Of a stretch of 42,218 nt of DNA, positions 3,001 through 21,734 are shown one piece after another. This DNA comes from a virus, in IMG/VR virus record IMGVR_UViG_3300045988_051752; one strand, 5' to 3'. Both the position numbers and the translations under genes were made by a program. The first letter of the stretch is position 1. Each line of letters opens with the position of its first letter. The notes beneath the pieces are model-generated. The model saw only the letters and a list, made by a program, of their open reading frames with translations, was not told the DNA's origin and did no database searches.

Positions 3001-6000
3001 ATATGACCGGTATATGGAAGTATATATCAGGATCCAAAAACATAGACGCAGAGCAGGTGGCAATAGCCACGGCGGACATGGCAAAGGGAATCCTGGAACA
3101 CGCAAAGGTAAATGTAAACGAGAGATACGCAGAGCAGTATAAAGATCTGGCAAAAGAGGTAAGACAGATCAAGCTGGAAGTGCCGGAAGAGATGAGGGGA
3201 GATTTCGACCGGGAAGGAGGATACGCGGAATTCCGAAAGAGAAATTTCGGAACGTTAAAGCTGGGAAAAGAAGGACAGAGCATTGATTCCTACTACCAGT
3301 CCCTGGCAGAAAGATACCCGGAGCTGTTTGACGAAACTATATACACCAACCCTGCGGATCGGCTCATGCACATAGCGGAAGTGATGGAAAGTATAAAGCC
3401 GAAGTATGAAAATGCATTTGGAATGGATCTTGATGAAGCAGCAGCGGATCTGGCGCATGAAATCTATCAGTCGTATTTTGATATTGCAGCAGGAAAAGGC
3501 TCTATTGATTCGATCAGAAAGAATGTGATAGAAAAAGAGCGGTTGAAATACAAGAAATACAGGGAGAAAATGCGGGATGATTACAAAAAGTACAGGGAAG
3601 AGTACAGAGGGAATTTTGCGCAGAGAAGAAAGGAGAACTTTGAAAAGAAAGCCTATTCGAAAAACATCGAACAGACAGCAAACAGATTAAGCAGATGGCT
3701 TTTGAATCCGACGAACACCAACAGCGTACCGGAGAGTTTAAGGGGGCCGGTGGCTGAATTCTTAAATTCCATCAATTTAAGCAGTAAGGACGTGAATGTG
3801 TACGGAAATCCCACGCAGAGAACGCTTAAATGGCAGGCTCTATCAAGGGCATATGAGAATATCATCAAAGCGCAGGACAAGTCGGAATACACGGGACAAT
3901 TCATAGACCTGGATCCGGATCTGGTAAACATGCTGAATGATCTGACGGAAAAGAATAAAGAGGTAATGCTTGCAGATATGACTGTGCAGGACATGAAGGA
4001 ATTGAACCGGCTGATAATGGCTGTGAAAAAATCCATCGAAAGCACGAACACATTACTTGCAACAGAGAACTACAAGAGAGTGTCAGATCTGGGAGAGAAG
4101 TTCCTGGAAGAAAACGAGAAAAAAGAAAGTGCAAAGGAAAGTGTATACGGAACCGTAAATACAGCAAGAAACTTCATGAAGCTGGATATGTTGGATTCAA
4201 GGACGTATTTCAATTCACTGGGAAAAGCAGGAATGGATATATACGGGGCATTGAGAAGCGGACTGGACAAAAAAACGAGAAATATCAAAATTGCGCACGA
4301 CTACATAAAAAATCTGATAGGAGAAACAGATATATCAGAGTGGTCGGGAGACAAGGCGAAGCTGCACGAATTCGAAACCGAGGGAAGGGAAGAGTTAAAA
4401 CTCACAACAGCACAAGTCATGAGCCTGTACAGATTGCTACAGAGAGACCAGGCAAAGAAACACATTCTGGAAGGAGGAATAAGGCCGGAAAAAACCATAA
4501 CAAAAGCAGGGAAGCTCAAAAAAGAAGTTACAAGATACTATGAACCGATACGGGTAACCGAAAAAGACCTGCTGAACATCATAGACACACTGACGCCGGA
4601 GCAGAAAAGGATTGCTGATGGAATCACGGATTTCTTCACTTCAACAACATCTGCCTGGGGAAACGAAGTGTCCATGCAGTTGTACGGATACAGGAAATTC
4701 ATGGCAAGAAACTACTTCCCGATCGTTTCGGATAACAGCTTTACGAATTCGGCAAGCGGAGACCAGCAGGGAAACGTACAGACCTTGAAAAACATGGGAA
4801 GTACAAAAGCGACCGTGCCGCATGCAGGAAACCCGATCATATTACAGGATATTTTTGATGTATATGCAAGGCAGTCCGACCAGATGGCAAGCTACAATGC
4901 ATTTGTGGTGCCGCTAACAGACCTGCAGAAGTGGTACAACTACAGAGGAGATCCTACGATAACGAAGTACAAAAAATCTGTAAAACAGACCATAACAAGG
5001 ACAATGGGGCAAAATGGAAGGGCATATCTGGACACCTTGGTGCGGAGAATAAACGGAGTAGCCGAGAAAGAAACGGCAAAACAGATATGGTCAAGCCTGA
5101 CATCGAACATGAAGTCTGCGGCAATCGGAGCGAACTTAAGAGTTGTACTGCAGCAGCCGACGGCGATTGTAAGAGCAGCAACCGTGATCGATGCAAAGTA
5201 CCTGATGAAAGGAATGGCAAAAAAAGCGGACGGAGACCAGATGAAGAAGTACGCACCGATAGCACAGTGGAAAGACTGGGGATATTTCGAAATGGACACC
5301 GGCCGGCAGATGAAGGATGTTATTCTTGGGAAGGAATCGTTGAAAGACAAAGCAATGGCACCGGCAGGAATGGCCGATGACTTCACATGGGGGAAAATCT
5401 GGAATGCGGTATTGTATGAAACGAAGGATAAAACGGACTTAAAACCGGGATCGGAAGAATTCTATCAGGCAGCAGGAAAGAGATTCTCTGAAATCATCGA
5501 CAGAACACAGGTTGTCGATTCCATCCTGCACAGGTCAAGTGTAATGATCCAGAAGGACAATGCGACAAAAATGGCAACATCCTTTATGTCGGAGCCTATA
5601 AAAACCTACAACATGGTCTACGACACGCTGATGAACACGCCGGGAGGAAAGAAGGAAGTCGCAAAGAGCATGGCAAAGCTGCTGGTGATCCTGACGGTAC
5701 AAAATGCAGTGAACGCACTGGCGCAGACACTGGCGGATGTATGGAGAGATGATGACGATGAAACAGCATGGGTGGATGTAGAAACATGGAAAGATAATTT
5801 CAAAGACAACATGAATCCACTTACATACATTCCGTACTTAAAGGAGATACCTTCGATATGGCAGGGATTTTCGGCAGAAAGGACGGAAATGACGGGTATC
5901 ACGGATTCGGTGCAGGGATTACAGAAATGGATCAAATACTTCCAGGGAGAATCAAAGTATACGGCAGCAGGGCTTGTGAGAGAATCCATGAAACCGATCA

Positions 6001-6938
6001 GTGAGTTGTCGGGAATGCCAATAAACTCCACGCTCAGAGAGTTTGAAAGCCTGGCGGATTTGATTGCATGGAACTATCGCAAGGTAACAGGAAACGAAAC
6101 TGCGAAAGCCGAGTATGAGATCAAAAAGACATTTTACAGAGCAGGAAGTCCGAAGAACAGAAATATGTTCATCGGACTTTACGGAAGAGCAAGGGAAGAG
6201 GGGGATTACAAAACAGCAGCAGCCATCTATAACGATCTGCAAAAAGCCGGGAACACCAAAGAAAGGCTTGACAATGCGTATAAGAAATGGAAGAAGAAAA
6301 GGGATGAGGGACTGCTGGAAGCAGATGAAGGCTTGCAGAAGGAAATAACAGAGGCATACAAAAACAACGACATGGAAACATTCAAATCCGCATCGGAAGA
6401 ATTGAAGAGCAAGGGTATAGACATTAACACCGCGCTGGATCAGATTGAAGACGAGGAAAAAGAGGAAGAGGAATACGAAGTGTCGGAAGTAACGCCGGAA
6501 GACCTGCAGAAGGAAGATAACACAGCAGAACTATACACCTTGCTTTACATGGCGACCCAAAACAATGATACACAGGCGCAGAACACATACAAAAAGCAGC
6601 TGAAAGAAGCTGGGGAAAAAGAGGAGGACTTCCAGAAAAACCTTTTAAAAGAGCAAAATGCCAAGGCTAAGGCAACAGGGGGAACGGAGTATAGCTACGA
6701 TGCACTGTTCAATGCTCTGGTATCCACAGAAGGGAAAAACGGCAAAAAGTATAAGGAAATAGAACAGGGGCTGAAAAAATACGGAAAAGACGATTCCACA
6801 ATAAAAAAATCCATGAAGTCCAGATTAAAAACAGCATATATGAACAGCAGAGGAAACGACAGGCTCACGAAAAAATATTCCGATTTGCTGAGAAGCTTCG
6901 GAGTGGACACACAAACGATTAAAGGATGGCTGGAATAA
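1..6938 (+). CDS. Giant multidomain protein, 3' part (stop TAA 6936-6938); combined ORF is 9,069 nt = 3,022 aa
   Basis: The frame is open from the first base. The track starts it at an internal TTG (18) only because the window begins there. It contains an HExxH motif (HELTH, 771-785), a Cys cluster (CPKRR...ACGFCYVE, from about 1503), and a long K/E-rich C-terminal tail. Coding-strand purine bias produces many spurious antisense ORFs. Confidence 0.85.
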   Translation, partial: ARPVELTAEDLQEPQIDAQAKEKKAVQENVRQREKVPETGAQRSVEGVNYKGLQGDIEGIDRVENGKIYARVNTGDATIVQPVSNLNFDNAVTQALYQTAEGYKDAGARNFVMEYNGESLIAYKKGFNAYYDAATVGIPMGKVNSVYGNMLTEKQKAAAYAAGETDLNFEQRHENLKVARETKTAGSQVLENDAFRSLTKENQTILKAYAKMSGANVVVDETISAGNGRYANGYYDNNGTIHIAADATSPISVVANHELTHYLQQYSPIYDEYKNEVINYLMQKENMPLDGLIERHMSNYENAGRQISREEAMDEIVANASEMFLTDESAVQRMVKENRSIGEKVLDFFKEFISNLKKMLEGYEPKSKEAQMLNEDLEMARKTEKIWLEAMQDAKRTGGGDASIENVNVAVANDGSAYRTYSLKTWNESEYATEKKKAAEELAEAIGVTKRTATEYINNINSIAAIIAEDKERLDYKASPYGSAWKSNAEYGGSIDMSTLCPKRRMYTGTVAEIQKAMPNTALTAEDYVSIRSMMMEKGYEVACGFCYVESSRKDIGKYTGEFLEQYKKDHPESNYTQVDFNTPEGLEKVQESDKGAYDKYLEFMNRLAQRKPKLFENRTEYRHEILDAFKRKETIEKKNKNGGVRLQSFSDFETPHLIDMMQVIIDMSRVGLGGQAYTKMPNFAWALGDTGLKINLSLVGNVDEKGNLTFDDVEGMPIDEAMKLRKRYSKNVGTILVGVSDEHILAAMKDDRIDFIIPFHRSQWNKSLYSALGIDGYKDYTKLQNESYIEERRNKNGKKMRPSNFMPNEYWDYSKTGKQNAEKYLEMCAEDGRIPKFSNFLKYNEDGTWSLKEDGSTDGYWKLLGDFKMYDNEGKGSPQKPVKPKFNMDECERILNEYEGGHQSFPVAKDVVREFLEERKDKKFMIKEDIRYQMEDASEVDYDTLKAENKDLKELNSILGGMIKATKGIEPDQDAIKKVGKKILKDYNSDYNLDTFTRNMTGIWKYISGSKNIDAEQVAIATADMAKGILEHAKVNVNERYAEQYKDLAKEVRQIKLEVPEEMRGDFDREGGYAEFRKRNFGTLKLGKEGQSIDSYYQSLAERYPELFDETIYTNPADRLMHIAEVMESIKPKYENAFGMDLDEAAADLAHEIYQSYFDIAAGKGSIDSIRKNVIEKERLKYKKYREKMRDDYKKYREEYRGNFAQRRKENFEKKAYSKNIEQTANRLSRWLLNPTNTNSVPESLRGPVAEFLNSINLSSKDVNVYGNPTQRTLKWQALSRAYENIIKAQDKSEYTGQFIDLDPDLVNMLNDLTEKNKEVMLADMTVQDMKELNRLIMAVKKSIESTNTLLATENYKRVSDLGEKFLEENEKKESAKESVYGTVNTARNFMKLDMLDSRTYFNSLGKAGMDIYGALRSGLDKKTRNIKIAHDYIKNLIGETDISEWSGDKAKLHEFETEGREELKLTTAQVMSLYRLLQRDQAKKHILEGGIRPEKTITKAGKLKKEVTRYYEPIRVTEKDLLNIIDTLTPEQKRIADGITDFFTSTTSAWGNEVSMQLYGYRKFMARNYFPIVSDNSFTNSASGDQQGNVQTLKNMGSTKATVPHAGNPIILQDIFDVYARQSDQMASYNAFVVPLTDLQKWYNYRGDPTITKYKKSVKQTITRTMGQNGRAYLDTLVRRINGVAEKETAKQIWSSLTSNMKSAAIGANLRVVLQQPTAIVRAATVIDAKYLMKGMAKKADGDQMKKYAPIAQWKDWGYFEMDTGRQMKDVILGKESLKDKAMAPAGMADDFTWGKIWNAVLYETKDKTDLKPGSEEFYQAAGKRFSEIIDRTQVVDSILHRSSVMIQKDNATKMATSFMSEPIKTYNMVYDTLMNTPGGKKEVAKSMAKLLVILTVQNAVNALAQTLADVWRDDDDETAWVDVETWKDNFKDNMNPLTYIPYLKEIPSIWQGFSAERTEMTGITDSVQGLQKWIKYFQGESKYTAAGLVRESMKPISELSGMPINSTLREFESLADLIAWNYRKVTGNETAKAEYEIKKTFYRAGSPKNRNMFIGLYGRAREEGDYKTAAAIYNDLQKAGNTKERLDNAYKKWKKKRDEGLLEADEGLQKEITEAYKNNDMETFKSASEELKSKGIDINTALDQIEDEEKEEEEYEVSEVTPEDLQKEDNTAELYTLLYMATQNNDTQAQNTYKKQLKEAGEKEEDFQKNLLKEQNAKAKATGGTEYSYDALFNALVSTEGKNGKKYKEIEQGLKKYGKDDSTIKKSMKSRLKTAYMNSRGNDRLTKKYSDLLRSFGVDTQTIKGWLE
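771..785 (+). other. HExxH (HELTH) zincin-type metallopeptidase motif inside the giant ORF
   Basis: Sequence context is IHIAADATSPISVVANHELTHYLQQYSP. This is the classic zinc-binding HExxH pattern preceded by a hydrophobic strand. Assignment to the polyvalent-protein metallopeptidase family is from memory, not a search. Confidence 0.5.
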
Positions 6939-9692: not shown

Positions 9693-9757
9693 GTGTATAT
9701 TATAGTAATCATCGTTGTACTGGTTCGTCGGTACAACGATGATAGAATTATATACAC
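9693..9757. other. Candidate attP: 65-bp imperfect palindrome abutting the integrase 3' end
   Basis: Outer arms gtgtatat (9693-9700) / atatacac (9750-9757). Inner arms atcatcgttgtac (9708-9720) / gtacaacgatgat (9731-9743). 10-bp centre tggttcgtcg. Overlaps the integrase stop codon (9748-9750). Confidence 0.4.
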
Positions 9758-11307
9758 AAATTTGCGTCAACAGAAATATCCCAGACAATCCAGCCACGGT
9801 TCGTGGCACCGGCCTTTCTGACCGGGGGCTCCCGGTAATAGGAAATCTTCTCGATACAGGATTTTAACATACGGTTCTTGGCCTCTGCGGTAATGTCTGA
9901 ATCATCCAGGGCGGCGAGAGCAGCGGAGAACCGGCCGCGTTTTTCCTCAATGGCCTCCCGGGTGGGAACTTCGGAGAGAATGGAATAGATAGAAGCCTGC
10001 ACAGCGGCCTTATCTTCGGCCACACGCCGGTTCAGTTCATCGAATACGTTTTTTGGCATTTGTTCCTCGGCGTACTTATCCCACAGAGAGATTTCTTTCT
10101 TATCCAGGGCGGCCAGGCGCAAGCGAAGCGAGGAGAGCGTTTCTTCCCGGGAGGCCATGGCGGCAGCAGAATCTTTGAGCTGCACGTCAAAATCGTGAAT
10201 GGCCTGCTTCAAAATGCGGACAACGATTTCTTCCGCCTCCTCGAAAGTACAGGAACCGGTATGGCAGACACGCTGCATATCACAGAGGATACGGGGGCCA
10301 GTCTTGGGGTATGTGTGATAGCTCATGGCGTGGCCACACCGGCAGACGAAAAGACCGGCAAAAGGATTACGAACCTTCACCTTATCCTTGGCACGGGTGA
10401 CCTTCCCGGAGATTTTCTGGGCAGCGCCAAACAGCTCCGAATCAATGATTGCCGGGTGCCTGCCGTCGTGCAGCTCATATTCGCTGCTCCATGGGCGGCT
10501 GGATTCCACGGAGCCGCTATGAACGGAGTGGACAACCTTCCGACGGTTCCAGAAAACTTTTCCGGTATAGACGGGGTTCTGCAGGATACTCTTCACGCAG
10601 TTATATGTCCACGAATCATTGTTTCGAGGATGAGTACCTTGGAGGTTCAGCTGCTTGGCAATACGGGAGGGGCCAAGATCTTCGACGGCCCGCATTCGGA
10701 AGATCTGTCGGACAACAGAAGCTTCGGCGGGATTGATGCAAAGCGTGTAATGCTTCTTCTTTCCTTCCAGGACAAAGGTCTTGTCATACCCGTAAGGGGC
10801 AACGGAACCGATGTAATCGCCCTGACGGACGGCTTGCAGGCGGCCGCGGCTCATGATCTTCTTCTGATATTCCAGATATTCATTTCCTCTTTTCAGCTCA
10901 CGTTCAAAGATATCCCGATCGTATTCGTCGGACAGGTCATAAGTTTTGCTGGGTGTGATGACATTCGTGCGGGTGTAGCGAAGGATCTTGATGAGACGCC
11001 CTGCGTCTTCCAGGTCGCCGCGGGAGAGACGCTGAACCTCAACGCACAAAATGGCTTTAATGGCTGGAGATTCAATACGCCGGAGAACGGAGAGAAATTC
11101 CGGGCGGTCGTCAATCGTCTCCCCGGACACGACCTCTCGATATTTGTTTTCTGCTGGGATACAGCAGTCATGCCTTTCGGCCCAATCAGATAAAATGGAT
11201 TCGTGCTTTTGCAGCACATCTTCGACGGATAGACTGGGATCATCGGCCCTGGATTTTCGCAGGTACTCGATGATCTCATCAGAACGATAAGAAAGTTCTC
11301 GATACAT
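9748..11307 (-). CDS. int: Large serine recombinase (integrase), phiC31/SpoIVCA class
   Basis: N-terminal resolvase motifs YLRKSRAD (catalytic Ser), DRPEFLSVLRRIE and VEVQRLSRGD. Central recombinase domain, Cys-rich zinc ribbon CRCGHAMS...CDMQRVCHTGSC, C-terminal coiled coil. RBS AGGGGGA. Confidence 0.92.
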   Translation of the reverse strand: MYRELSYRSDEIIEYLRKSRADDPSLSVEDVLQKHESILSDWAERHDCCIPAENKYREVVSGETIDDRPEFLSVLRRIESPAIKAILCVEVQRLSRGDLEDAGRLIKILRYTRTNVITPSKTYDLSDEYDRDIFERELKRGNEYLEYQKKIMSRGRLQAVRQGDYIGSVAPYGYDKTFVLEGKKKHYTLCINPAEASVVRQIFRMRAVEDLGPSRIAKQLNLQGTHPRNNDSWTYNCVKSILQNPVYTGKVFWNRRKVVHSVHSGSVESSRPWSSEYELHDGRHPAIIDSELFGAAQKISGKVTRAKDKVKVRNPFAGLFVCRCGHAMSYHTYPKTGPRILCDMQRVCHTGSCTFEEAEEIVVRILKQAIHDFDVQLKDSAAAMASREETLSSLRLRLAALDKKEISLWDKYAEEQMPKNVFDELNRRVAEDKAAVQASIYSILSEVPTREAIEEKRGRFSAALAALDDSDITAEAKNRMLKSCIEKISYYREPPVRKAGATNRGWIVWDISVDANLCI

Positions 11308-18300: not shown

Positions 18301-18448
18301 GAAGGGAAGAGATACAAAACCGGAAGATTGCACACATCCTGATTGCTTCCACTGTCCGTATCATGATTGCATATGGGATGGAAGGCTGGGGTACGACCCG
18401 ATAAAACGGAGAGCGGAATCGAATCAAAAAGAGAGGGAGAGGAAATGA
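18293..18448 (+). CDS. Cys/His-rich micro-protein, 51 aa (MPKKGRDTKPEDCTHPDCFHCPYHDCIWDG...)
   Basis: ATG at 18293 overlaps the upstream stop, and its TGA (18446-18448) overlaps the next ATG (ATGA). Below the track cutoff. Found by manual translation. Confidence 0.45.
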   Translation: MPKKGRDTKPEDCTHPDCFHCPYHDCIWDGRLGYDPIKRRAESNQKERERK

Positions 18449-18735
18449 AAATCTACATCAGCGGCCCAATGGCGGGAATAGAAGGATATGAAAAGAATTT
18501 TAAAACTGCGGAAGTGAAAATGAAGGAATCCGGACATGAAGTCGTGAATCCGGCAGAAATTGACGGGGAAGGAATGACGAGGGAAGAGCTTCTCAAACTC
18601 GACCTGTGGATGATGGAAGAGTGCGATGCGATCTACATGTTAAAAGGATGGCAGCGGTCCTGCGGAGCAAACCGGGAATATGGGTTTGCCTTGGGGCGCG
18701 GCATGGAAATCTTTCACGAGGGTGTGTCGGAATGA
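18445..18735 (+). CDS. DUF4406 / nucleoside 2-deoxyribosyltransferase-like protein, 96 aa
   Basis: MKIYISGPMAGIEGYEKNF...VVNPAE...ECDAIYMLKGWQRSCGANREYGFA matches the DUF4406 pattern from memory. Confidence 0.6.
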   Translation: MKIYISGPMAGIEGYEKNFKTAEVKMKESGHEVVNPAEIDGEGMTREELLKLDLWMMEECDAIYMLKGWQRSCGANREYGFALGRGMEIFHEGVSE

Positions 18736-19417
18736 AAATATTGATAGCGTGCGAAGAGAGCCAGACGGTATGCAAGGCTTTCCGGGAAAAAGGACATGAA
18801 GCATACTCCTGCGACGTTCAGAAGCCGTCCGGTGGGCGCCCGGAATGGCACATACTCGGAGATGCGCTGAAAGCCATCCAGGGGGGGGGATTGTAGAAAC
18901 CATGGACGGAGCTACACACGAGATTGGACAGTGGGACATGCTGATAGCACATCCACCTTGCACATATTTAACAGCGGCAAGTGCAATTCGGCTCTTCAAC
19001 CCGGATCATTCCATAAAAGATCCAGAAAGAGAGCGGAAGGGATGGCGGGCAAAGGAGTTTTTTCTGAAAATTCTGAATTCAGAAGTAGGGAAAATTGCCG
19101 TAGAAAATCCGGTACCGCTGAAACGATTTGAATTGCCTGCATACAGCCAGATTATAGAACCGTATATGTTTGGGGATCCGTGGAAAAAACGAACTTGCCT
19201 GTGGATAAAAGGGATGCAAAATCTCAAACCGACAAACATAGTGGAGCCGCTGGGGCTTTGGGTAGGGGCCGCGTCCGGGAGGAAAAACGGAACTGGACGG
19301 GTAAAAAGCGGTTACATCCTAAAGAGCAACCGCGATCAGAAGACTAGATCAAAGACATTTCCTGGGATTGCGCAGGCAATGGCAGAGCAGTGGGGAGAAA
19401 CAAAAGATGACAAATAG
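18732..19417 (+). pseudogene. DNA (cytosine-5) methyltransferase-like gene split by a frameshift in a G9 tract (intact length would be 228 aa)
   Basis: The N-terminal part (MKILIACEESQTVCKAFREKGHEAYSCD...KAIQGGGL*) stops at 18896. The -1 frame continues GGGIVETMDG...DMLIAHPPCTYL...IAVENP...TCLWIKG to 19417. One extra G (G10) fuses the two parts. Confidence 0.7.
18881..18889. repeat. G9 homopolymer at the frameshift point
   Basis: ccaGGGGGGGGGatt. Zero-frame codons are CAG GGG GGG GGA TTG TAG. Confidence 0.95.
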
Positions 19418-19748
19418 AGAAATGCTTCGCCGGGCACAGCTGGCAAAGCTTACGAAACAGATCATAGACAGCCCTGAATACAGGGAGCGCAGAAAAGAAG
19501 ATGACGAGCAAAACCTCATGAGAGCATTTGCAAGCTTTGCATTGATAAGTGCAGATTATCTTTATCGGCAATTTAACTGCAAGGCAGCAGGAATCAGAAA
19601 ATTTATTGATTTTGTAAAGCCGAGCATGGGATATGTAAAGGATGATCCGGATTATTTTAGGCTGATGAATGAGGCATTTGTGGACGAGATAGGGTTGGAT
19701 ATTATGAAAGAGCTGGGAATGGAGTTTGAAGATGAAGACGAAATGTGA
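19407..19748 (+). CDS. Hypothetical protein, 113 aa
   Basis: ATG at 19407 after GGGGAG, overlapping the upstream gene end. Confidence 0.6.
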   Translation: MTNREMLRRAQLAKLTKQIIDSPEYRERRKEDDEQNLMRAFASFALISADYLYRQFNCKAAGIRKFIDFVKPSMGYVKDDPDYFRLMNEAFVDEIGLDIMKELGMEFEDEDEM

Positions 19749-20586
19749 AATTTACAGAGATTCGATGCAGAACTATAAAAAGTACGGCATTAGGCCTGCG
19801 CAGCTGATCATCGCAGATGTCCCGTATAACGTTGGTAACAACTTCTATGGAAGCAATCCGATGTGGTACAACGGCGGCGACAATAAAAACGGTGAAAGCA
19901 AATTAGCCGGGAAAGCGGCATTTAACAGTGACTTCAATTTCAATCTTTATGAATATTTCCATTTCTGTTCAAAGATGTTGAAAAAGGAAGATACAAAACC
20001 CACACGCCGCGGCAAAAGCAGCGACAGCCCATGCATGATTGTATTTTGCTCCTTTGAGCAAATACATACGCTGATACAGGCGGCGAAGAAACATGGATTC
20101 GTGAATTACATTCCACTGGTGTTCATCAAGAATTACAGTCCACAGGTGTTGAAAGCCAATATGAGAGTTGTGGGAGCTACGGAATATGCGTTGCTTTTAT
20201 ATCGCGGAAGGCTCCCGAAGTTCCGGAACGGGGTACAGTTTGACGAAAACGGTAAAACCATCAGAGGGACGGGACACATGGTTTTCAACTGGTTCCAGTG
20301 GGAGAAAGACGGGAAAGACATCCCGAAGATTCACCCGGCGCAAAAGCCTGTTGCAGTGCTGAAAAAGCTGATTGAGACATTCACCGATCCCGGCGATGTC
20401 GTGATCGATCCGTGCTGTGGATCTGGATCAACACTTCGGGCAGCGGCGGAGCTAGGAAGGAATGCCTATGGATTTGAAATTGACCGCACGTTTTACGACC
20501 GGGCAAAAAATGAAATGATGAAATTCGAAAAGGACGAACAGATGAGTATTGAAGATTTTATGAAAAAACGAGGAGGAAAGAAATGA
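19732..20586 (+). CDS. DNA methyltransferase, N6-adenine/N4-cytosine family (beta class)
   Basis: Motif IV LIIADVPYNVG precedes HPAQKPVAVLKKLI and motif I VIDPCCGSGSTLRAAAELGRNAYGFEID. Confidence 0.9.
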   Translation: MKTKCEIYRDSMQNYKKYGIRPAQLIIADVPYNVGNNFYGSNPMWYNGGDNKNGESKLAGKAAFNSDFNFNLYEYFHFCSKMLKKEDTKPTRRGKSSDSPCMIVFCSFEQIHTLIQAAKKHGFVNYIPLVFIKNYSPQVLKANMRVVGATEYALLLYRGRLPKFRNGVQFDENGKTIRGTGHMVFNWFQWEKDGKDIPKIHPAQKPVAVLKKLIETFTDPGDVVIDPCCGSGSTLRAAAELGRNAYGFEIDRTFYDRAKNEMMKFEKDEQMSIEDFMKKRGGKK

Positions 20587-20850: not shown

Positions 20851-21734
20851 ATGGATATCGAAAAAGAAAAACGGGCAATACAATACCTCCGGTCATTCGA
20901 ACCGGAGGAAGAGCCTTATTATTTGTGCTATTCCGGCGGGAAAGACAGCGACGCCATCAGGATTCTTGCACAGCTGGCGGGGGTGAAGCACGAATGCAAA
21001 CATAATCTGACAACTGTGGATGCTCCGGAGACCGTGCGATACGTCCGGGAGACGATCGGGAAGGAAAACATCAACTACCCGAAAGAATCCATGTGGCAGC
21101 TGATCGTGAGAAAGAGGATGCCGCCGACCGGAATTGCACGATATTGCTGCGAAGTACTGAAAGAACGCGGAGGAGAAGGACGGCTCAAGATCACGGGTGT
21201 TAGGTGGGATGAAAGCAGAAAAAGAAAAGAGAATGCTGGAATCGTAAGAGTTATCGGCAAAGAAAAGACGATGCAAAAGAAGCTAAAGGATGACGAGGTA
21301 AATTTTCAGTCAACGCCTATGGGGGGGTGGTATTAAGTACAGACAACGCAAAAGAAAGGAGATTTGTAGAGTATTGCTACCGTACAACAAACACGACGAT
21401 AAACCCGATCGTGGACTGGACGGACAGGGATGTGTGGGAATTTTTACACCATTACGGCTGTGAATCAAATCCACTTTATCAATGCGGATTTGATAGGATT
21501 GGGTGCATCGGCTGCCCGTTAGCTGGCGGAAAACAAATGAAAGCCGAGCTTGCAAGGTATCCAAAGTATAAAGAGGCTTACATAAGGGCATTTGACCGGA
21601 TGCTGGAGAAGAGAAAAGCGGACGGATTACCGACAAAGTGGATCAACGGCGAGCAAGTCATGCGCTGGTGGGTTGGAGATGATCCGAACCAGATAACAAT
21701 AGACGATTATCTAAAAATGACAGGAGGGATATGA
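20851..21734 (+). pseudogene. PAPS-reductase/PP-loop family gene split by a frameshift in a G7 tract (intact length would be 294 aa)
   Basis: The N-terminal part has the PP-loop YYLCYSGGKDSDAI and stops at 21336 (...STPMGGWY*). The -1 frame continues VVLSTDNAKERRFVEYCY...NPLYQCGFDRIGCIGCPLA to 21734. One extra G (G8) fuses them. Confidence 0.75.
21321..21327. repeat. G7 homopolymer at the frameshift point
   Basis: tatGGGGGGGtgg. Zero-frame codons are ATG GGG GGG TGG TAT TAA. Confidence 0.95.

Follow-up and report, generated by a model that had tools for sequence, protein, structure and literature searches.

We analysed a viral DNA of 42,218 nucleotides (nt) (IMG/VR record IMGVR_UViG_3300045988_051752; "the window" denotes this whole stretch) and found that a gene for a minimal C5-methyltransferase-like protein (18732-19417, plus strand) is interrupted at a run of nine guanines (G9, 18881-18889, plus strand). 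This run is the frameshift site of the gene; intact relatives have G7 at the homologous position, and G6, G8 or G9 occur in other relatives. Based on the sequence comparisons described below, we estimate a probability of roughly 0.6 that the run is a real hypermutable tract of the contingency type and that the window carries a genuine +2 (G9) OFF allele.

By inspection of the sequence, the tract was found at codons 50-52 of the gene with the flanks cca-GGGGGGGGG-att. The first open reading frame (ORF), ORF A (18732-18896, plus strand), starts with the ATG at 18732, reads MKILIACEESQ...KAIQGGGL and ends with the TAG at 18894-18896. According to its translation and the alignment, ORF A consists of 51 native N-terminal codons (beta1-alpha1-beta2, with the invariant residues C7, E8, E9, S10, Q11 and D28), the G tract, one out-of-frame Leu codon and the stop. 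The C-terminal part (18890-19417, plus strand; the mechanical ORF is listed as 18845-19417) is read in the -1 frame from the G run as GGGIVETMDG...LIAHPPCTYL...VENP...TCLWIKG, with its stop at 19415-19417, and contains PPCT (motif IV-like), ENP (motif VI-like), KKRTCLW (motif VIII-like) and a C-terminal FPGIAQAMAEQW helix. The ORF coordinates thus bear out the original prediction that the gene is interrupted at G9 and that its remainder lies in the -1 frame. Insertion of one G (G10) gave a single ORF of 228 amino acids (aa), as had also been predicted, and deletion of two Gs (G7) gave one of 227 aa. The natural in-frame length is G7, which was present in every intact close relative, and the window is therefore to be described as +2 and not as -1 relative to G10. 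The reading frame is toggled by the length of the tract: G7 and G10 are full-length, G9 stops at 18896 and the G6 and G8 alleles of relatives are split. The repaired translation matched phrog_757 over its full length, was 89-96% identical to three intact proteins (P0001-P0003) and gave the structural matches described below. A G9 run per se is unremarkable, as dinucleotide shuffles gave 0.34 such runs per window and at least one in 23 of 100 shuffles; what makes it significant is its position, as both the gene and the Gly-Gly site are conserved and the protein split there can be aligned over its whole length with phrog_757 and with single-ORF homologues.

The three intact proteins read QGGIVE at the site, encoded by caG GGG GGG att (G7), and the closest-clade contigs that were retrieved through the intact protein were all G7. 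Tract length was surveyed in viral and metagenome collections by means of a DNA pattern that leaves the number of Gs free. For the closest clade this length-blind pattern returned G8 (ERZ773170 NODE-454), G6 (ERZ772879 NODE-279), G7, G8 (ERZ1026872) and G7, and with the G9 of the window included four of the six length-unbiased observations were out of frame. For the wider clade, with the context GAG GGG GGG CAA, the first 120 viral contigs returned were used. These comprised 90 contigs with G7, 18 with G8, seven with a frameshifted G6, one with G9 and four with in-frame variants (GGGGGGA or GGGGGAA), and 26 of them (22%) were out of frame exactly at the tract. Divergent clades with other flanking residues (VGGV, LGGGM and RGGC; contigs L017, L052 and L062) still had G7-G8 at the site. 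Pattern scans of isolate genome contigs gave 0 and 1 loci.

Contig pairs with 99.1-99.6% identity were found to differ in tract length, and the tract was the sole gap in several alignments of 2-3.6 kb between related contigs. All differences in G/C-run length between related contigs were located at this tract, and A/T runs of at least six differed in length in only 6 of 302 comparisons between related contigs. The phase variation that had been put forward as one of three explanations of the interruption is thus supported indirectly but strongly, by the presence of G6, G7, G8 and G9 at one site, by the approximately 22% of contigs that are off-frame only there and by ORFs that are otherwise intact.

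When the tract was reset to G7, every off-frame gene became full length, and none of these 26 genes had a secondary lesion. In the set of about 110 complete genes, the only other lesions were in L127, which has a second frameshift, and perhaps in L122, so that the tract accounts for more than 90% of all disruptions. ORF coverage elsewhere in the contig was 0.93 for off-frame and 0.92 for in-frame contigs (p = 0.78). Off-frame lengths were also found to be inherited: L171 and L200, which are distinct contigs with 99.93% identity (3 mismatches in 4.1 kb), were both G8, and L138 and L163, from different IMG datasets, were both G6. The ratio of nonsynonymous to synonymous substitution rates (dN/dS) was 0.07-0.21, with or without an off-frame allele in the pair. 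Taken together, the intact off-frame genes, the near-identical pairs, the shared off-frame lengths and the low dN/dS speak against sequencing error of a generic kind and against pseudogenes of long standing. The pattern would be expected if the tract mutates much faster than the remainder of the gene, on which purifying selection acts. Two more general explanations were rejected: globally error-ridden contigs on the equal ORF integrity of in-frame and off-frame contigs and the stability of A/T runs, and an old pseudogene on the lack of secondary lesions and a dN/dS of 0.1-0.2.

Codon usage suggests that the tract may be retained. In a protein-selected set of genes, which is not biased for the tract, GGG made up 80 of 114 codons (70%) at the two Gly positions of the tract, compared to 285 of 1348 (21%) at the other Gly codons of the same genes; these counts ignore kinship. 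Per alignment column, GGG was used in 67-75% at the two tract positions versus 5-36% at other Gly positions. Per-column codon entropy was no more than suggestive and showed some other N-terminal codons to be as conserved, in a set of which part had been pre-selected for the tract, and the protein-selected subset gives the fairer figure. Additionally, the first approximately 75 codons, which include the G tract, were nearly identical across L007, L122, L127, L128, L143 and L198, and the C-terminal halves were strongly different (for example PPCTHLAVSGARWF... versus PPCTYLTAASAIRLF...). This suggests recombination breakpoints inside a mosaic gene with a mobile N-terminal segment.

The joined protein matched phrog_757 ("DNA methyltransferase") over residues 1-226 with an E-value of 2.4e-51. 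Homologues were very numerous (more than 8000, and all 8000 that were scored were significant), with single ORFs of 207-250 aa among the matches listed, and the few that have a name are called "DNA cytosine methyltransferase" and come from Oscillospiraceae metagenome-assembled genomes (MAGs) and Caudoviricetes. For the joined protein no Pfam family was found at E <= 1, no PDB match was obtained by sequence or profile search, and NCBIfam gave nothing meaningful. In an alignment of 43 members the invariant residues were A6-C-E-E-S-Q11, D28, D44, H73-P-P75-C76-T77 and E124-N125-P126, next to a basic KKRTCLW segment. The assignment of PPC and ENP to motifs IV and VI of C5-methyltransferases was made by inspection; accordingly read, the catalytic Pro-Cys of motif IV and the Glu-Asn-x of motif VI (ENP for Glu-Asn-Val) are present and invariant in 43 of 43 sequences. 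The canonical motif I FxGxG, the S-adenosylmethionine-binding loop after beta1, was absent from this alignment and the invariant A-C-E-E-S-Q was found in its place.

An AlphaFold model of the joined protein had a mean predicted local distance difference test score (pLDDT) of 77 and a predicted template modelling score of 0.74, with a pLDDT below 50 for approximately 45 aa between the motif VIII-like segment and the C-terminal helix. The first 18 PDB structures matched by Foldseek were DNA C5-methyltransferases (DNMT1, ZMET2, M.HaeIII, DIM2, DNMT3A, M.HhaI and MET1), save for one DNMT2 entry. The best match (4da4_B, E 4.8e-4, template modelling (TM) score about 0.4) was moderate and not strong, and matches in BFVD included viral cytosine methyltransferases. 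A recognisable target-recognition domain was not evident in the sequence or the model. The protein thus resembles PF00145 enzymes such as M.HhaI, M.HaeIII and DNMT1/3 in its best structural matches, in PPCT and ENP, in the basic KKRTCLW resembling motif VIII and in the acidic D28 and D44 that end beta2 and beta3, and it differs from them in size (about 225 aa versus at least 300 aa), in ACEESQ versus FxGxG and in the lack of a recognisable target-recognition domain. As motif I is replaced, Pfam gives no match, the protein is approximately 100 aa shorter than canonical enzymes and a target-recognition domain is not evident, we did not file it as a proven PF00145 member. A C5-methyltransferase-like protein, as originally predicted, is supported by the modelled fold and the PC/ENx motifs, although not by Pfam, and DNA cytosine methylation would be its predicted activity. 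Within 19396-19417 of the window the gene ends with a TAG where L001-L006 have CAG and extend by 17 residues (245 aa versus 228 aa); as the wider family does not conserve this tail, the difference is probably harmless.

We propose that slipped-strand mispairing during replication would add Gs to the coding run or remove them from it, a mechanism that is in itself ordinary. With G7, and in principle with G10, the gene would be ON and give the full-length protein. With G6, G8 or G9 it would be OFF, as the shifted frame would end translation a few codons on and leave an N-terminal fragment without the catalytic PPC/ENP half. Changes of state in a lineage, from ON to OFF or back, would then outpace the accumulation of other mutations. 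We infer that such switching is reversible and frequent within a population and that the ON/OFF heterogeneity is useful; one possible use would be that some progeny are shielded from classical restriction and others go unnoticed by modification-dependent restriction. More tentatively, and at somewhat less than even odds, the poly-G may be a selected contingency switch of the whole family. Thousands of temperate gut phages would then toggle a minimal non-canonical C5-methyltransferase-like enzyme, and their virions and lysogens would be epigenetically heterogeneous, as in a phage-borne "phasevarion" or a bet-hedge between the classical and the modification-dependent type of restriction. The PAPS (3'-phosphoadenosine 5'-phosphosulfate)-reductase-like gene of the same module, as a second poly-G-prone gene, might behave likewise.

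Several observations weigh against a contingency tract in a methyltransferase gene. All tract lengths were read from the consensus of metagenome assemblies, several of which had a low coverage of 1.5-7x, and classical phase-variable tracts are usually longer than G7. The conservation of the two Gly codons is not unique, as it is equalled by a few other N-terminal codons, and a mobile N-terminal segment could spread the tract without selection for mutability. With motif I replaced by ACEESQ, no Pfam match and a TM score of only about 0.4, methyltransferase activity is a prediction. Finally, both G runs of at least seven in the window coincide with frameshifts, as would be expected from a G-specific consensus error.

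This last point bears on the alternative that survives best, although we consider it unlikely: an error of consensus or assembly confined to the window, in which G9 was miscalled and the gene of the phage is in reality intact, with G7 (or G10). G-rich homopolymers are a weak spot of several sequencing platforms, and such an error would fit the intactness of the remainder of the gene and the purifying selection on it, as well as the location of the two longest G runs of the window at frameshifts. The second of these, and the sole other G run of at least seven in the window, is a G7 (21321-21327, plus strand) at the split of the PAPS-reductase-like gene into ORFs 20851-21336 (161 aa) and 21327-21734 (135 aa), between which a single Pfam PAPS_reduct profile is divided (positions 4-120 and 129-174, respectively). 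However, intact relatives (L001, 294 aa; L009) read GGGTGGGG (ATGGGTGGGGTGG) at this site and the window GGGGGGG, so this lesion is not a simple change in run length. It could reflect real G-run instability in the lineage, for example through a synonymous T>G change and the subsequent loss of one G from a G8 to give G7, or a consensus problem specific to G runs. In L005 and L006 this gene is broken differently, by a 1-nt non-homopolymer deletion 6 nt upstream, and genuine decay of the PAPS-reductase-like gene therefore occurs.

The A7-A8 runs in ORFs of the window were not linked to frameshifts, and a +2 error is rarer than a +1 or -1 error. Above all, off-frame tracts occur at the same site in approximately 22% of independent contigs from several datasets, with identical off-frame lengths shared between contigs, and the Illumina indel error at a 7-mer is far below such a proportion. 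The homopolymer error named in the original prediction thus keeps some weight for the window alone, but as a general explanation it is made unlikely by the tract polymorphism across contigs, the equal ORF integrity and the shared off-frame lengths.

Somewhat less probable still is a mutational hotspot without switch function, in which the gene is dispensable in many hosts, the tract is the likeliest spot for loss of function and the off-frame alleles are young, decaying pseudogenes. Off-frame alleles are indeed common, L127 has its second frameshift, and the independent breakage of the neighbouring PAPS-reductase-like gene by different mutations in the window and in L005/L006 suggests relaxed selection on the module. 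Against this stand the complete lack of secondary lesions in the off-frame genes and their low dN/dS. In addition, GGG-GGG is kept across clades of 50-77% identity although the synonymous GGC, GGT or GGA would remove the liability, and the off-frame alleles, instead of grouping into old clades, occur dispersed among in-frame relatives that are nearly identical to them.

Programmed recoding, in which the gene would normally be expressed by -1 ribosomal frameshifting on G GGG GGG or by transcriptional slippage, is very improbable: the X XXY YYZ heptamer of the original prediction is formally present in the zero frame with a stop two codons downstream, but recoding would be superfluous in the approximately 78% of homologues that have an in-frame G7, the closest relatives have a single ORF and the two-frame arrangement is not conserved among homologues, the off-frame alleles would need opposite shifts (+1 for G8, -1 for G6, and -1 or +2 for G9), and no downstream stimulatory RNA structure was found at 18880-18990 (minimum free energy -20.9 versus a shuffle mean of -22.8 kcal/mol, z = +0.70; 143 of 200 shuffles at least as stable). 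Long homopolymers can provoke slippage of RNA polymerase, and a G9 template might conceivably yield traces of the full-length protein in this way; transcriptional or ribosomal slippage at G9, if any, is not the design of the gene. A role of GAGGGGGGG as an internal Shine-Dalgarno sequence for initiation at the conserved Met of TMDG was set aside on inspection, as the spacing is at least 12 nt and the product would be without the invariant N-terminal residues.

In bacterial phasevarions, Mod and Hsd methyltransferases with simple repeats are switched in Haemophilus, Neisseria, Helicobacter and Campylobacter, with demonstrated effects on regulons. The contingency tract proposed here shares with them a repeat in the ORF of a DNA methyltransferase and ON/OFF switching by slipped-strand mispairing. 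The phasevarion enzymes differ in being chromosomal N6-adenine Mod/HsdM proteins of type III and type I systems, usually with longer tracts, whereas the present gene is a phage orphan of minimal size with a C5-like fold.

Among phages, hypermutable polyG tracts of 7-11 Gs have been reported in genes of Campylobacter (Fletchervirus) phages (Sorensen et al. 2021, Cell Rep 35:109214). These are also phage-borne coding G homopolymers in which a change in length shifts the frame and diversifies the phage population. They are reportedly located in receptor-binding proteins of lytic phages and alter host range, whereas here the gene is of the DNA-modification type, the phages are temperate gut phages and the switching is predicted from assemblies. 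The agt gene of phage T2 is a contingency locus with a coding A run, in which +1 or -1 frameshifts revert about 1000-fold faster than a point mutant, and its ON and OFF states are favoured by different restriction systems, McrA/BC versus TgvAB (Gomez, Barrick and Waters, bioRxiv 10.1101/2025.10.21.683753). It has in common with our proposal a homopolymer in a phage DNA-modification gene and the same logic. It differs in that an A run in a glucosyltransferase gene of a lytic coliphage was shown experimentally to switch, and here a G run in a C5-methyltransferase-like gene of a very large uncultured family is proposed from sequence to do so. For the Bordetella phage BPP-1, a polyG tract in a methylase gene is attributed to Liu et al. 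2004 (J Bacteriol 186:1503) in a citing paper; as mentioned there, it is a single-genome observation on which no further study followed, and its relation to the phrog_757 family is not established.

So far, homopolymer contingency loci of phages have been documented only in Campylobacter phages and, according to the recent preprint, in a small number of cultured phages that include the T-even group. We did not find described in the literature a tract that is conserved across a very large C5-methyltransferase-like family of temperate gut phages, with approximately one fifth of assembled genomes OFF. If the tract is such a switch, DNA modification would be turned ON and OFF from within the gene itself in a family that is very common among gut phages, which would extend these loci to temperate phages of the human gut and give a concrete reason for heterogeneous methylation patterns of phages and prophages. 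In approximately one fifth of contigs, the gene will be annotated by pipelines as a pseudogene or as a pair of small ORFs.

The window is a temperate siphovirus-like genome with a serine recombinase (9748-11307) and a single-stranded DNA-binding protein, and its block with terminase and portal genes is about 90% identical to L005. The phages of this family come from gut metagenomes, with an Oscillospiraceae MAG and proteins named Oscillospiraceae among the matches. The order of the module is a DUF4406 gene, the methyltransferase-like gene, a small ORF, an N6/N4 methylase, a small ORF and the PAPS-reductase-like gene. The DUF4406 gene (18442-18735, plus strand; Pfam PF14359, E 8.8e-25) is nucleoside 2-deoxyribosyltransferase-like and has the same gene order in L001, L005 and L006. 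Its TGA overlaps the ATG of the methylase-like gene (18732) as ATGA, a typical coupled arrangement, and the pairing may hint at a joint function in nucleotide or DNA modification.

The N6/N4 DNA methylase gene (ORF 19726-20586; PF01555, E 8.4e-28) had 77% nt identity to gp48 of the Ruminococcus phage phiRM10, and this match to the neighbouring methylase was the only one obtained in a megablast search of the window against GenBank phages. It was found to be an insertion (19744-20564), as relatives that span the junction align from 19743 directly to 20565, and the phage therefore has a second, unrelated methylase beside the broken one. Downstream of the modification module, a 66-aa minus-strand ORF with a Pfam match to the anti-CRISPR AcrIC5 was found in L005 (14060-14260) and L006 (5381-5581).

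Other G/C runs were also observed among the related contigs. A poly-G/C site that recurs in several contigs, within a neighbouring gene (peptide ...CPMAGRGGRQREFMRW), was C7 and in frame in L098 (at 7256), L125 (620), L172 (1693) and L190 (901), and in L174 (7678) it was G8 with split ORFs. A G8 run in L001 (6025) was likewise located at a split ORF pair (5804-6070 and 6009-6566). The other distinct G/C runs of at least seven numbered 44, with 28 in a continuous ORF, four at a split ORF pair and 12 unclassed.

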